The notes beneath the pieces were generated by a model. That model did no database searches. It saw only the letters and a program-made list of their open reading frames with translations, and was not told where the DNA came from. Position numbers and translations under genes: made by a program. This document shows positions 8,061-12,800 of a DNA stretch of 64,000 nucleotides, one piece after another (the first letter of the stretch is position 1; each line of letters begins with the position of its first letter). Source of the DNA: an uncultured Solirubrobacterales bacterium (GTDB taxonomy: Bacteria; Actinomycetota; Thermoleophilia; Solirubrobacterales; JBBDJG01). The stretch spans positions 5,479 through 69,478 of the forward strand of contig CAVXJX010000015.1 of assembly GCA_963762195.1 (NCBI GenBank), read 5' to 3'.

Positions 8061-8899
8061 ATGTCCCCCGAACAGCTCTCCCAGGAACGCAGGCGCGGCC
8101 TGTTCGCGGCCGTCGCCGCGATCGTGTCCGGCCTTGCGTTCGTGTCCGGCGCGATCTGGTACCAGGCCGTCAACGCCGACGCCCCGGACGGCAACGACGA
8201 GGACGCCGCACGTCCTGCGCTACTTCGACCGCACACGGCAGCGAGTACCTCGGCTGCCTCGATCCTCCAGGCCTTCGGGATCGCGCTCCTGGTGGTGGTC
8301 GCGGTCCACCTCTACCGCGCCGCCAAGGACCGCAACCCCGACCAGCCGGCGCTCGTGCTGGTCGTCGGCGTGCTTCGGGCCCGCTCGCGTTCGCGGCCAG
8401 CACGCTGATCCGCGCCGTGACCTACACGATCCTGGCCGACGACTTCGCCGGCCGCGCGGTCCAGACGGAGGCGGCCGCCGACGACCTGCTCGACACCCCG
8501 GCCCTCGACATCGCGAACGGGCTCGGTCTCACCGGGGTGCTGGCGCTCGGGTTCTGGCTCGTCAAGGGATCGCTCGACGCGATGCGCATCGGGCTGCTGA
8601 CGCGGTTCATGGGAATCATGGGGATCGCCCTCGGGCCGGCGCTCGTGCTCGGCTTCGGGCTGCTGGTGATGCCGCTGTGGCTCGTCGCGCTGGGGGTCCT
8701 GTTCCTCGGCCGCTGGCCGCGCGGCATGCCGCCTGCGTGGGTCACCGGCAGGGCGGAGCCGTGGCAGAGCGGCGCGAGTGCGCCGGACGAGAGCCGCAGG
8801 AAGCCGACCGCGGCGGGGATCGCAACGGCGAGGTGGATGCGATCGGGCGCGGCGTGCGCAAGCGGTGCCGGCTACGAGTGCGAGCCGCACGACGAATAG
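8061..8899 (+). CDS. Integral membrane protein (DUF4386-like); frameshifted
   Basis: About 6 hydrophobic helices across ORFs 8061..8408 and 8417..8899. Confidence 0.55.
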
Positions 8900-8910
8900 G
8901 CGCACGGCGA

Positions 8911-8980
8911 TCGGCCCCGGGCACGGAGGCACCCGGGGCCGATCACGCGGTCGCGTGACGCGAACGGCGTTACGCGTCAC
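8911..8980. terminator. Hairpins between the convergent membrane gene and MGYRH copy 1
   Basis: CGGCCCCGGG...CCCGGGGCCG (about 8911-8941) and GTGACGCG...CGCGTCAC (8955-8980). Confidence 0.5.
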
Positions 8981-8993
8981 CCGCAGTGTAGAA

Positions 8994-9011
8994 CTAGTGG
9001 CGGTAGCCCAT
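8994..9011 (-). CDS. Pentapeptide MGYRH, copy 1 (MxYxH biarylitide-precursor-like micro-gene)
   Basis: ATG GGC TAC CGC CAC TAG; G7 RBS 5 nt upstream; own ECF-type promoter; duplicated with one synonymous change. Confidence 0.7.
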   Translation of the reverse strand: MGYRH

Positions 9012-9049
9012 GCACACCCCCCCGATAGAACGAAGCGGACGGACGACTA

Positions 9050-9085
9050 CGACCACCAGACGGGGACCGGCGAGGCGATCTTCCC
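9050..9085 (-). promoter_or_regulatory. ECF sigma-type promoter, copy 1
   Basis: GGAAGA (9084-9079) - 16 nt - CGTCT (9062-9058), then GGTGGTCGTA. Confidence 0.7.
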
Positions 9086-9102
9086 CCTGCAAGAAAGCCC
9101 CC

Positions 9103-9136
9103 AACGAAAGAGGGGCCGCGCCGGCCCCTTTTCGTT
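9103..9136. terminator. Strong hairpin/terminator downstream of MGYRH copy 2
   Basis: AACGAAAGAGGGGCCG-CGC-CGGCCCCTTTTCGTT, near-perfect inverted repeat. Confidence 0.75.
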
Positions 9137-9170
9137 TCAAGTCTCTGTGTGTTTCGTATCTAGTGCGGTT

Positions 9171-9188
9171 CTAGTGCCGGTAGCCCAT
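9171..9188 (-). CDS. Pentapeptide MGYRH, copy 2 (MxYxH biarylitide-precursor-like micro-gene)
   Basis: ATG GGC TAC CGG CAC TAG; GGGGG RBS 5 nt upstream; own promoter and terminator. Confidence 0.7.
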   Translation of the reverse strand: MGYRH

Positions 9189-9214
9189 TGTGTCCCCCGT
9201 GTGATCGTTGCTTA

Positions 9215-9250
9215 CGACCACCAGACGGGGGAGCGGCCGGTTTTCTTCCC
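9215..9250 (-). promoter_or_regulatory. ECF sigma-type promoter, copy 2
   Basis: GGAAGA (9249-9244) - 16 nt - CGTCT (9227-9223), then GGTGGTCGTA. Confidence 0.7.
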
Positions 9251-9263
9251 TCCAGGGAAAACT

Positions 9264-9869
9264 TCAGGCGAGCGTTGCCAGGGCGCGCTCGGCGGCGGCG
9301 GTGGCGGACCCGGCGAGGTCCCGCGCGCGAACACCCGCGCGTCGGTGCTGGTGGTGCCGAGGTTGATCTCGACCAGGGTCGCCGCGGTGCGTGCTGCGCC
9401 CTGGGCCAGCAGTGCTCCGGCGACGGCATCGGCGCGCATCGCCTGCTCGCCGCGTTCCGCGACGACGGCGGCCAGCAAGGCGACGTCGACCGCGGCCTGG
9501 GCGATCTCCAGCGGGATCTGGGCCGCATGCTCGAGCAGGATCCCGAGGCCGACCTCTCCAGGCGTGTGCGCCTCGGGCTCGCCCCGGGCGACTCGTCGCG
9601 CGGGTCGCAGCCGGGCGATCGCGCGTCGCGTACGCGTCCACGTTTCGCTGGGCCAGCGGCGCGACGCGCTCGCGCAGGGTGTTGGCCTGTGCCGCGGCGC
9701 CCCTGGCCTCTCCCCACTCCCCGCGCGAGGCGCCGGCCACCATCGCGACCAGGCCCGCCGCCATGGAGAGCGAGACCGCGGCGCAGTAGCCGGCGCCCGG
9801 CATCGGCTCCGGCGTCGCGACCTCGGCCAGGAAGTCCCGCAGCGGCAGGTCGAGGAAGTCGCGGCTCAA
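9264..9869 (-). CDS. Cyclodeaminase/cyclohydrolase (FTCD C-terminal) family protein; compensating frameshifts
   Basis: FLAEVATPEPMPGAG..AA...AAGLVAMVA, then IPLEIA...RADA.AGALLA......LVEINL (frame of ORF 9212..9478); TTG start overlaps the upstream TGA. Confidence 0.75.
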   Translation of the reverse strand: MSRDFLDLPLRDFLAEVATPEPMPGAGYCAAVSLSMAAGLVAMVAGASRGEWGEARGAAAQANTLRERVAPLAQRNVDAYATRDRPAATRATSRPGRARGAHAWRGRPRDPARACGPDPAGDRPGRGRRRLAGRRRRGTRRAGDARRCRRRSTAGPGRSTHRGDPGRDQPRHHQHRRAGVRARDLAGSATAAAERALATLA

Positions 9870-12800
9870 GCCGGGATCTCCCCGCGGCGCGCCGTGATCG
9901 CGGCCGCCTCGTAGCCCTTCACCTCGGCGATGCGCAGCGCCTCCTCCGTGCTCGCGAGCGCGTCGCGCTGGCGGCCGGCAGACATGCATCACGTCGGCGT
10001 GGGCCAGCAGCGCGTCGACCTGCAGGCAGAGCCAGTCCATCGGGCGCACGACGCGCAGCGCGCGGTCGGCCGTCTCCTCCGCGAGCCGCGTCCAGCCCTC
10101 GGCGGCGAGCAGCTTCGCCCGCACGGCCAGGCGCGGAGCGTTGACGCTCGCGTCGTCGCTGGCCCACTCCTCCTTGAGCGCCTTCAGCGTCGAGTCGGCC
10201 TCCTCGAGGCGGCCCTGCGCGTACAGGGCCTCGGCGAGCGGCACCGCGGTCTCGCCGAGCGAGCTCTGCAGGCCCATCTGCGTGAGCACGTCCCAGCTCT
10301 CGCGCAGCGCGCGCTCGGCCGCCACGGCGTCACCCGCCGCCAGCTCCATGCGCCCGCGGCTGCGCTTGGACCACTGCGACATGTAGAGCAGGCCCATGTC
10401 CTCGCTGATCGCCGTCGACTCCGATCAGCGCCGCGCGCGCCTCGTCGAAGCTGCCGCGCCGCCCGAGCGCGACGCCGAGCACGTGGAGCATGTCGGCCTC
10501 CATCGCACGCATGCTGCGCTCGCGGGCGGCGGCGAGGTGCTCCTGCGCGAACGCCACCGCGCGCTCGAGGTGCGCGGGACCGTCGAGCAGGCACATCCCC
10601 ATGGCGAACGAGATCGCGTTCCAGTGGCGGGGAAAGGTGTCGGGATCGGCGTGGCGCAGCGCCTGCTCCAGCGCCTGCTGGCCATCGCTCGCACGCCCCT
10701 CGTACATGCGCGACTCGCCGAGCAGTCGCCACGCGTCGGCGAGGCCACGCTCCTCGTCGGTGTGCTCGAGCAGCCGGATCGCGCGCTCGGTCTCCTCGAC
10801 CAGCTGGGTCGCGGGGATGTCGGGATGTGCGACGAACCACACGTGCGCGCGTCCGAGGCGCGCAAGGCCCTCGATGCGCCGCTCGCCGGCAGACAGCGCC
10901 CGTTCCAGCGCCTCCTCGTAGATCTCTCCCGCCTTGGTGTGGTTCGCGGTGCCCTCCAGCGACTCGCCGATCGCCGGCAGCAGCTCGAGCCTGCCGCGCG
11001 CGGTCACCGGCAGCAGCGCTCCGGCGCGCTCCAGCAGCCCGACCGCCGCGGTGTCCTCGCGCGCGCGTGCCGCGCGCCGTCCCGCGGAGGCGAGGCGTGC
11101 GGCCGCGCGCTGTCCCAGCGCGAACGAGCGCTCGTCGACGAGGCCGAGGTCGGCGCGGTAGCGGTGGGCGCGCTCGAGGTGATGGCCGAGGATCGCCTCG
11201 ATCTCGATCATGCGCTCGGCATGGCGTTGCTCGAGCCAGTCCGCGAGCAGCTCGTGCAGCTCGGCGCGGTCCTCCTTGTTGATCGACTCGTAGGCCGCGT
11301 CACGCACGAGGATGTGGCTGAAGGCGTAGCCCGTCTCGCCCTCGAGGGTCGATTGCTCCGGCGCGACGAGCTGCTTGCGCGTGAGCGTGTCGAGCACGCT
11401 GGTGTGTCTCCCGCGCCGGCGATCGCCGCGACCGCCTCGGCCCAGAACTCGCGGCCGATCACCGAAGCGGCGCCGATGGCGCGCCGCTCGGCGACGGTGA
11501 GGCGGTCGAGGCGCGCGGCGAGCAGCGCATGGATCGTCGGCGGGACGCTGACGTCGGCGGAGTCGCCGGTCTCGCGCAGGAACGCGATCATCTGCTGAAG
11601 GAAGAGCGGGTTGCCCTCGGCGCGGGTCGTCAGCTGCTCGCGCACCTCCTCGGAGGCCGCACCCGCAGGCAGCAGCTGGCGGATCAGCGCGCGGGTGTCC
11701 TTCGGACAGCGGGCCCGAGCTCGAGCATCGAGGAGTCGTGGGTCTCGCGCGCCCACTACGGTCGTTGCTCGATCAGCTCCTGGCGCGCGAGGCAGACCAG
11801 CATCAGCGGGGCACCGGTCGTGTGCTCGAGCAGATGCTCGATCAGGTCGAGGAGCGCCGGCTCGGCCCAGTGCAGGTCCTCGAGCACGAGCACGACCGGT
11901 TGCTCACGCGCCAGCGCCGCGAACAGGTCGCGCACCGCGCCGGTCAGGTCCTCGCGGGCCGCGGTCGGCTCCTCCAGGCCGGCGGCCTGCAGGACGCGGT
12001 CGGCGAGCACGTCGGCGCGCGGGTCGTCGGCGAGGACGCTCTCGAGTGCGGCGAGCGGATCCGTCTCGCCGGCCAGCTGGCGCACGATCTCGGCCAGGGC
12101 CCAGAACGCGATCCCCTCTCCGTAGGGCAGGCATCTTCCGACGAGCACGGTGGCACGCTCGGCGAGGGTGTCGCCGACCTCGCGTGCGAGCCGCGTCTTC
12201 CCGATGCCGGCCGGGCCCATCAGGACGACGCGCTGGGGGCTGCGCTCGTAGGCCACGCGCTCGAAGGTCTCACGGAGCTGGCGCAGCTCTGGCTCGCGGC
12301 CGAGCAGTGGGCCCAGGTTCGCCGTCTGCTGCGCCGCGTGCGGACAGCCGCCAGGCCTTGAGCGGCTCCGACTTGCCGCGCACCGAGAGCGGCTCGACCT
12401 CCTCGGCCTCGACGGCGTCGCCGACAAGCCGCCGCGTCGCTTCGCCGATCAGGGTCTCTCCCGCGGCGGCGCCCTGCTGCAGGCGCGCCGCGATGTTGAC
12501 GGGGTCGCCCGTGACGAGCGCCTGGCCCGCGGACGCGTCGCCGGCCACGACCTCGCCGCTGTTGACGCCCGTGCGGATCGCGATCTGAACACCCCAGCGG
12601 CGCTGGAGCTCGCGGTTCAGCCGGGCCAGCTCCTCCTGCAGCTCGAGCGCCGCCCGCACGGCCCGGCTCGCGTGATCCTCGAGCGCCGTCGGAACTCCGA
12701 AGACCGCCATCACGGCATCCCCGATGAACTTCTCGACCGTGCCTCCGTGACGCTCGACGACCGCCGAGGCCGACTCGAAGTACCGCAGCATCACGCGCCT

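Follow-up and report, generated by a model that had tools for sequence, protein, structure and literature searches.

What can a gene of five codons do? The question is raised by a 64,000-nt stretch of DNA (the window; G000:C15:5479-69478) from an uncultured bacterium of the Solirubrobacterales, whose assembly, G000, comprises 2.87 Mb in 18 contigs and is 75.7% complete. On its minus strand, the window carries two open reading frames (ORFs) of 18 nt, copy A (ATGGGCTACCGGCACTAG, 9188-9171) and copy B (ATGGGCTACCGCCACTAG, 9011-8994), both of which encode the pentapeptide MGYRH. Genes this small escape annotation and, in the available sections of the literature on them, the only characterised genes of 18 bp are precursors of RiPPs (peptides made by the ribosome and modified after translation) that depend on a cytochrome P450. 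A first-pass annotation of the window had described the two micro-ORFs as biarylitide-type MxYxH genes in a possibly undescribed micro-peptide system. Here, we compared the micro-ORFs and their surroundings with those of related genomes. The predicted peptide family is M-G-[Y/F]-R-[H/N/K/R/S]. The part of the earlier proposal that stands is the micro-peptide system, as conserved and codon-constrained micro-ORFs lie in complete mini transcription units, none of which is found in the literature searched; the biarylitide type does not stand. The explanation that we prefer, at somewhat less than an even chance, is a directly encoded pentapeptide signal that acts in trans, together with its partners.

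Organization of the two micro-ORFs

Re-reading of the sequence bore out the description of the pair. The two 18-nt genes differ only in the wobble base of the Arg codon, which is CGG in copy A and CGC in copy B. Each ATG is preceded at a distance of 5 nt by a G-run Shine-Dalgarno (SD) sequence, located at 9198-9194 for copy A and at 9023-9017 for copy B, and both copies have a promoter of the extracytoplasmic function (ECF) type. The promoter of copy A (9250-9213) is composed of the -35 heptamer GGGAAGA at 9250-9244, a 15-nt spacer, and CCGTCT + GGTGGTCGTA at 9228-9213. The promoter of copy B (9085-9048) has GGGAAGA at 9085-9079, a 15-nt spacer, and the block CCGTCTGGTGGTCGTA at 9063-9048, so that heptamer, spacing and 16-nt block are identical in both copies. 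No sigma-70-type promoter was found by a promoter scan of 8800-9400. The downstream hairpin that had been noted at each copy takes two forms. Behind copy A, a terminator scanner finds an intrinsic terminator (9136-9101) made of a stem, 9129-9111, and a T-rich tail, and the hairpin is present in the minimum free energy and centroid folds. Behind copy B there are two strong hairpins that lack a U-tract (8980-8955 and 8943-8909), which face the 3' end of a convergent gene (8417-8899, plus strand) and have a fold z of -3.5 (200 shuffles).

The pattern ATGNNNTAYNNNCAYTAG matches twice in the window, against 0.00 matches expected from 100 shuffles. Longer ORFs that overlap the pair, one on the plus strand (8778-9914) and a 48-aa frame (8994-9140) that shares the stop codon of copy B, were rejected, as they fail the criterion of GC content at third codon positions, and the flanks of the micro-ORFs are unconserved, with non-3n indels in them between relatives. 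Copy A is present at the orthologous position in 7/7 genomes of the genus.

Copies and distribution of the units

The pattern start-NNN-TAY-NNN-CAY-stop has only four matches in the whole 2.87-Mb genome. All four encode MGYRH and have an SD sequence; the two outside the window are on contig C7. The promoter is common to these four units and is kept in relatives too, and a near-identical terminator is found in three of the four. A BLAST search with the whole unit gave homologues in 12 of 61 genomes of relatives, which are all six other members of the genus and three further genera of the same family (f1, of which 18 genomes were covered). The ORF position in these homologues encodes MGYRN, MGYRK, MGYRR or MGFRR, always as five codons followed by TAG or TAA. 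When the promoter and ORF pattern was run over 185,579 species genomes, 30 stretches matched, all of them titled as metagenome-assembled genomes of Solirubrobacterales. In total, 14 of the 18 f1 genomes have units, and so do 13 genomes of a second family, f4, where another promoter precedes them. There are 2-9 units per genome, each with its own promoter and terminator, while f4 genomes have a single copy.

A pattern composed only of the SD sequence and the ORF was searched in 401 genomes of the order, with matches in 13/17 other f1 genomes, 14/122 of f4, 1/123 of f2 and 1/122 of f3. A reversed-pattern control gave eight matches in the same genomes (six in f2, one in f3, one in f4). The single f2 and f3 matches are no higher than this control and were not counted as units, and 13 of the f4 matches are real units, one per genome: MGYRH (4), MGFRH (5), MGYRK (2) and MGFRN (2).

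Some other candidates were set aside. An MGWRH frame of G000 (C2:186681-186698, plus strand) is probably a chance match, which overlaps the stop codon of the upstream gene and has neither promoter nor SD sequence; it is absent from the four relatives searched, where the sole match is an unrelated MGWSA in G003. The frames in L112 (MGFSV), L116 (MGYRP) and L181 (MGFRA) were likewise treated as chance, as they lack promoter and SD context or lie within coding sequence. In G011 (L093, about 4116, minus strand), a third promoter and terminator unit without SD sequence or five-codon ORF is located right after the tandem pair; it may be a copy that has decayed or else a small RNA in its own right.

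A full-text literature search gave 0 matches for MGYRH and, among the matches listed, nothing relevant for MGYRN, MGYRK, MGYRR, MGFRR or MGFRS; the MGFRS matches are 'mGFRs' and the MGFRR match is one unrelated engineering paper. This search covered main texts, and the precursor lists in the supplements of biarylitide papers may include related peptides.

Conservation at the codon level

The conserved part of the units consists only of the SD sequence and the frame (A/G)TG-GGY-T(A/T)Y-(CGN/AGG)-NNN-TA(G/A). Among 37 non-redundant units, a set that was picked with an ORF regular expression and is hence circular, the information content is about 0.13-0.17 bits in the flanks, 1.3-1.6 bits in the SD sequence at -10 to -8, and a mean of 1.64 bits over positions +1 to +18, a block that is sharply bounded and dips at the third codon positions and at codon 5. 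Independent support comes from tests that used the promoter only. In the loci sampled, 42 of 54 promoter-defined segments carry an SD sequence and a five-codon ORF beginning with MG; the other 12 are five promoters internal to a sigma factor gene, one other small unit and six loose matches within coding sequence. When metagenome contigs were scanned, without bias, for the promoter only, 36 sites came up; four of these are cut by contig ends, and the ORF is present in 27 of the 32 assessable sites. The rest of these are two occurrences of an unrelated identical sequence and three sites without ORF.

The variation is codon-like throughout: ATG/GTG at the start, GGT/GGC, TAC/TAT/TTT/TTC, CGC/CGG/CGT/AGG, and TAG/TAA at the stop. 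In codons 1-4 the sole amino acid change is Tyr to Phe, and codon 5 encodes His, Asn, Lys, Arg or Ser. None of 43 units ends in TGA, while the 1012 long ORFs of G000 end in TGA (47%), TAG (44%) and TAA (9%). This stop bias is only mildly unusual and is weak evidence, because TAG is common here and the copies share ancestry. Two copies appear decayed. An MGYRY copy in G006 (L117, G006:C17:42003-42020), the only copy in the genus whose fifth codon deviates, no longer has a -35 box, and a GTG-start copy in G013 (L095, about 5638) has a 1-nt deletion that breaks the frame; both deviate as relaxed selection would predict.

In an RNA-library contig of a relative, there are 0 changes in the 18 nt of copy B, as compared with 26 differences in the 185 flanking nt. 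Such contigs carry no information on strand, ends or expression level, and X19 and X20 give an identical 203-nt contig, so that they may not be independent. In a word search of sequencing runs, two RNA runs contained 0.05 of the words and no run reached half. Codon-wise constraint in homologous loci had been named beforehand as the test of the coding reading, and its outcome favours a coding ORF. We consider it very probable, from the comparative evidence alone, that the micro-ORFs are translated, and the peptide itself appears to be the selected product.

The same data bear on a different explanation, in which the units are a sibling family of ECF-dependent small RNAs (sRNAs) and the ORF is incidental or stabilises the RNA. 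The predicted transcripts are about 100-150 nt long and have a 5' hairpin and a terminator, and they occur in tandem and dispersed copies, as known sibling sRNAs do. The small 5' hairpin is also kept through different sequences and lengths. However, outside the SD sequence and the ORF nothing is conserved between genera (about 0.15 bits), and neither the length nor the sequence of the spacer to the terminator is constant; only the 5' hairpin and the terminator recur, with no conserved seed or structure of the kind that a base-pairing sRNA would have. The variation runs by codon, no single target could pair with both the CGC/CGG and the CGG/AGG changes, and the start (ATG/GTG) and stop (TAG/TAA) are always kept. 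At a permissive threshold, Rfam gave only sub-threshold matches for 8800-9400, the best with E = 0.023 and 18 bits against a gathering score of 123. A family of sRNAs is therefore quite improbable.

The biarylitide assignment

In the biarylitide class, according to the sections of PMC12002111 used here, an 18-bp gene, bytA, encodes MxYx[Y/H] and has an SD sequence upstream, and the gene of the P450 BytO follows directly downstream. The same sections give BytO as the only constantly associated enzyme, a mining window of +/-500 bp, and bytA as the smallest characterised coding gene, the previous smallest being mccA (21 bp). The available part of PMC13417212 has nothing relevant to this taxon.

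The micro-ORFs share with bytA the size of 18 bp, the pentapeptide and the upstream SD sequence. The product of the biarylitide class is a biaryl cross-linked tripeptide. The cross-linkable aromatic residues at positions 3 and 5 are not kept among the orthologues, which vary between Y and F at position 3 and among H, N, K, R and S at position 5, so that both partners of the cross-link can be removed. The first-pass annotation found no P450 in the window, and this holds for the whole 70-kb contig C15, which has no match to PF00067. The search for BytO-like P450s in the rest of the genome, which it had recommended, gave about 10 P450 matches, none of them near a unit or a bytA-like ORF: the closest to any unit is 48 kb away, and 0/10 have a bytA-like ORF within 1.5 kb. 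Five valid P450 queries gave no match in any of the unit loci sampled. For these reasons the biarylitide identity was rejected. A metal-binding role, also raised earlier, is unlikely, because G, Y/F and R are the conserved residues while His is dispensable.

In a broader form of this explanation, the pentapeptide is the precursor of a RiPP or of a cofactor and is modified in trans by an enzyme encoded elsewhere. Besides the bytA-like size and layout, the Tyr and His at residues 3 and 5 in G000 and the P450 matches in its genome would fit such a precursor. The substitutions at both positions and the missing linkage to a P450 or to bytA-like ORFs speak against it, and no other tailoring enzyme is syntenic with the units in either family. 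We regard this form as improbable, and a biarylitide whose P450 is an orphan, which is part of it, as very remote.

Concerted switching of residue 5

The fifth residue is uniform within each genome of the genus. It is His in 4/4 units of G000, 4/4 of G004 and all 8/8 intact units of G006; Asn in 5/5 units of G003 and 4/4 of G005; and Lys in 4/4 units of G001 and 3/3 of G002. Within each of these seven genomes the copies differ at synonymous sites. Between G000 and G003, the four orthologous loci (tandem A, tandem B and two dispersed ones) all have CAC in the former and AAC in the latter. For the rpoB locus, the tree obtained was ((G001 K, G002 K), ((G000 H, G003 N), (G004 H, G005 N))) (support values 100, 100 and 97). 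Both a clade of the H genomes (p = 0.0004) and one of the N genomes (p = 0.0001) were rejected in approximately unbiased (AU) tests, these p-values being indicative only, as the groups were named after the identity values had been seen. Trees of the flanks of the tandem pair and of one dispersed locus also place G003 as sister to G000.

Within each of G000, G003 and G005, copies A and B have different nucleotides directly ahead of the switched base, which argues against a gene-conversion tract. Alignment columns were classed as state (tracking the peptide state), species (following the species tree) or other (otherwise incongruent). The flanks of copy B are mixed, with four species, five state and three other columns; position 8999, where codon 5 begins, is one of the state columns. 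Variants of specificity that are uniform within a genome and yet cut across the phylogeny are a feature of pheromones. A uniform residue 5 is the pattern expected if one partner were to read all copies, and it may be called pherotype-like.

A uniform codon 5 could also be the mark of a minigene device, in which, once the sigma factor is active, the translation of many short ORFs would slow growth by tying up the tRNA of the last sense codon, release factor 1 (RF1) or ribosomes. Minigenes are known to sequester tRNA, and one codon used throughout a genome would focus the effect on one tRNA. The strong SD sequence at optimal spacing, the multiple copies, the stable hairpin-flanked RNA and the stops read only by RF1 fit this device as well. 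It leaves unexplained the strict Gly2, Tyr/Phe3 and Arg4, the last with four Arg codons, and the single copy of f4 in its context of transporter and HD-GYP genes, and we consider it quite unlikely.

The sigma factor module

The tandem pair is preceded on its strand by an ECF sigma gene, a gene for an 86-aa protein and a cyclase-STAND gene, in this order, which is kept through the genus and three other genera. The sigma gene (13889-13320) encodes 189 aa with Sigma70_r2 and Sigma70_r4 regions and scores 85 bits against TIGR02937, the cut-off of which is 42.9; its start codon was chosen from an alignment of orthologs. The last codons of this gene contain the promoter motif of the units (GGGAAGA, 15 nt, CCGTCT; 13365-13338), just ahead of the 86-aa gene. 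Genome-wide, the motif at this spacing is found only at the four units and at this sigma-internal site. The internal motif recurs at the same place in five loci, in further genera and in another family. In the loci of that family it also precedes other small genes, and the motif accompanies orthologues of the sigma factor. It resembles the general ECF promoter consensus.

The 86-aa protein (13318-13058, minus strand) is a candidate soluble anti-sigma factor. In the predicted complex with the sigma factor, its 36 N-terminal residues contact the region-2 and region-4 parts, which is the geometry of an anti-sigma factor. The interface score (interaction prediction score from aligned errors, ipSAE) is 0.82, against 0.08 for the best of three controls; the mark applied is reached by 58/80 solved complexes and 2/110 mismatched pairs, counts that hold only roughly here, as the prediction used our own alignments. 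At least 91% of contacts agree between runs, and the predicted local distance difference test score of the partner is at least 84. Complexes of sigma and anti-sigma factors have already been solved, and the pass may partly reflect likeness to them. Family matches of the 86-aa protein are all sub-threshold, and among them is a likeness to leader families of NHLP-type RiPPs (PF14407, 26 bits against 48; NF038399, 25 against 40).

The units are inferred targets of the ECF sigma factor because their motif recurs with identical spacing within the sigma gene itself, in front of the gene of a protein predicted to bind that factor. This finding supports the link to the neighbouring sigma factor that had been proposed, and transcription of the units probably depends on it. 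The units look like outputs of the sigma/anti-sigma/cyclase-STAND module. Co-occurrence in the 18 f1 genomes is as follows: units and the 86-aa and STAND genes occur together in 13; G016 (57% complete) carries units alone; the module without units is found in G007, G012 and G014, the last of which is 58% complete and has its STAND gene at a contig end; and G010 has neither.

The third gene of the module (12977-9264, minus strand) has, by Pfam matches, the domains of an adenylate/guanylate cyclase, AAA_16, MalT-like tetratricopeptide repeats (TPR) and an FTCD_C-like segment. In relatives, the STAND gene is a single ORF of 1044-1384 aa, while in G000 it is split over four frames. The 'cyclodeaminase-like' neighbour of the first-pass annotation does have FTCD_C-like sequence, which is the C-terminal part of the cyclase-AAA16-TPR STAND gene or is located directly behind it. 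In G000, the FTCD_C-like segment is fused in one 377-aa frame (10397-9264, minus strand). In most relatives it is in another frame or ORF than the STAND protein, with the break near residue 140 of the 377-aa ORF, and in G033 it is a separate gene behind the promoter motif of the units.

Other features of these loci can be described briefly. In G025, of another family (L090:5091-5400), the promoter motif precedes a gene for a 77-aa acidic protein that begins with MGVRF, and a similar acidic ORF is found behind the motif in metagenome contig L164. These ORFs are possibly other members of the regulon, or relatives of the ancestor of the micro-ORF. On the other side of the pair, two small genes (8061-8899, plus strand) converge on copy B; one, of 115 aa, has weak CbtA- and cytochrome-b561-like matches, and the other, of 160 aa, matches no family. 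Genus g1 and G013 have both in synteny with the tandem pair, and the other genera do not. In G000 the neighbours of the dispersed units are unrelated genes, and all three unit loci in this genome end facing convergent genes.

A second family with other wiring

In f4, the upstream region, the untranslated region (UTR) and the terminator of the units are all different from those of f1, and only the SD sequence and the ORF are common to both families. A conserved direct repeat of TGCACAAGTTT is present in two copies about 130 to 60 nt before the micro-ORF (L182-L194). It is found in intergenic DNA that the unit shares with a divergent operon, and is a likely binding site of a regulator. All 13 f4 units are located between this divergent operon and the gene of a 466-aa protein. 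The operon encodes an MFS_3 exporter, an SBP_bac_5 binding protein, OppC- and OppB-like permeases and an oligo_HPY ATPase. The 466-aa protein has a hydrophobic N-terminal half and, in its C-terminal half, the invariant residues H296-D297 and H349-H350-E351...G357-Y358-P359, which we take to be the HD-GYP signature. A GntR-family gene is found two genes downstream in f4. G000 has 15 matches to the HD-GYP-type protein, an unusually large set of paralogues for 2.9 Mb.

The f4 unit, with its hairpin and terminator, is located about 330 nt upstream of the HD-GYP gene and on the same strand. This arrangement brings in another explanation, a cis-acting leader or arrest peptide, the translation of which, perhaps with stalling at the RF1-read stop on a ligand, controls the hairpin or terminator and downstream expression. 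Conservation at the amino acid level is typical of arrest peptides, and the absence of TGA from the stops points the same way, with the reservations on stop bias given above. Nonetheless, a co-oriented downstream gene, as an attenuator would have, is found only in f4. In G000, the convergent genes leave nothing downstream to control, and behind copy A come a terminator and then the separate promoter of copy B. Multiple dispersed copies and a residue 5 that is uniform genome-wide would also be unexpected for a cis element. A leader peptide is thus unlikely.

A proposed function of the pentapeptides

A mechanism can be proposed for the preferred explanation, a pentapeptide signal acting in trans. 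Each copy would be a complete, free-standing gene of five residues, M-G-[Y/F]-R-X, transcribed from an ECF sigma promoter, with a transcript ended by its own terminator. The pentapeptide would be made when the sigma factor is active, and the 86-aa anti-sigma factor, under the same promoter, would provide feedback. As a small signal, the peptide would act in trans, with the fifth residue setting its specificity, and it may be exported and then sensed or re-imported. The signal would feed into cyclic-nucleotide signalling, through the TPR-STAND cyclase in f1 and through the membrane HD-GYP protein in f4. The genes for export and Opp-type import adjoin the unit in 13/13 f4 loci, and do not in the family of the window.

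Among its suggestions, the first-pass annotation had listed a signalling peptide with a link to the TPR sensor or to the sigma partner. The direction of the evidence favours it; it is unproven, and a co-varying receptor or partner was not found in the sigma-STAND locus or in the MFS and HD-GYP genes, in comparisons of low power. Several points weigh against the signal, besides the naming of the AU groups after the fact. The evidence for transcription and translation is indirect, and the RNA data are contigs of a relative without strand or ends. Unit A as a whole tracks the peptide state, with seven state columns and one species column and with an 11-nt deletion common to the His genomes; allele exchange or lineage sorting therefore contributes besides point selection. 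Outside the units, the sigma-STAND locus is not enriched in state columns (157 state, 136 other-incongruent and 366 species columns), the excess being in the units only. There is also no enrichment at the nucleotide level in the MFS gene (22 state and 16 other) or the HD-GYP gene (22 and 18), or in the columns of the HD-GYP protein (1 state, 2 other, 7 species), all of these with low power. No transporter adjoins any unit in f1, and genus g2 keeps the sigma/86-aa/STAND locus without units. Contig C3 of G000 keeps the MFS_3/HD-GYP pair (53% and 63% identity) with no micro-ORF in between. Finally, the STAND gene of G000 is frameshifted by at least five single-base indels. They are unique to G000, being absent from at least five of the six other genomes of the genus, and the neighbouring genes (sigma, acetyl-CoA synthetase and a propeller protein) are intact, so that the frameshifts reflect either recent decay or a local assembly error.

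In a fuller version of the proposal, the pentapeptides are a new class of pheromone-like bacterial signal. Their genes, which would be the smallest free-standing ones known, encode no more than the final length of the peptide and are present in 2-9 copies under an ECF sigma/anti-sigma switch; the pherotype would flip between sister species in every copy together and be read by cyclic-nucleotide enzymes, either the TPR-STAND cyclase or, alongside an MFS exporter and an Opp importer, a membrane HD-GYP protein. As a whole, this version is possible and rather doubtful. The probability that remains after the signal and the alternatives weighed above goes to functions beyond those listed.

Comparison with known systems

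What distinguishes these units is a five-codon family in which the start, the stop, four Arg codons and the synonymous wobble are kept while promoters and UTRs have been swapped between families, with no tailoring enzyme and with a genome-wide concerted switch of one residue. Were the peptide to be a signal, uncultured soil Actinomycetota would have yielded the first pentapeptide pheromone that is encoded directly and left unprocessed, one with ties to an ECF sigma factor and to enzymes of cyclic AMP and cyclic di-GMP. Even with another function, the units would indicate that selection can keep 18-bp genes as independent transcription units in multiple copies. The combination of an SD sequence, a five-codon frame and a terminator is a search recipe for more such genes.

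Among the known systems, bytA/bytO has the same gene size, an 18-bp pentapeptide gene with an SD sequence, and the peptide of G000 fits MxYxH. In the sections of the biarylitide paper used here, bytA sits directly upstream of bytO. In contrast, the micro-ORF units have no adjacent or nearby P450 and keep neither His5 nor Tyr3, and they have their own promoter and terminator, 2-9 copies per genome and an inferred place in a sigma factor regulon. The gene of microcin C7, mccA, is likewise a very small (21 bp) stand-alone peptide gene in the part of the source used here; it belongs to an operon with modification and export genes and its product is an antibiotic, whereas no such operon is found here.

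Two further systems resemble the units in their transcription or translation. The sigmaE-dependent sRNAs of enterobacteria are short, terminator-ended outputs of an ECF sigma factor with feedback on the sigma module; in the units, the conserved element is a frame predicted to be translated and not a base-pairing seed. In leader or arrest peptides and in pentapeptide minigenes, the function lies in a nascent chain of a few residues or in translating it. These are located in front of the controlled gene or inside rRNA, while the units of the window have no co-oriented downstream gene.

The RRNPP signalling systems of Firmicutes (Phr/Rap and relatives) use signals of 5-8 residues, Opp-type import and TPR-type receptors, and their peptides are cut from longer secreted precursors. 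The units resemble them in the five-residue length of the peptide, in specificity variants that cut across the relatedness of species, in the TPR-type repeats of the STAND protein and, in f4, in adjacent genes for Opp-type import. They differ in that the five residues are directly encoded, with no leader or signal peptide and no secreted precursor. Furthermore, an MFS protein is the candidate for export, the cyclase-STAND protein and the membrane HD-GYP protein are those for the effector role, the receptor is a candidate only, and the phylum is Actinomycetota.

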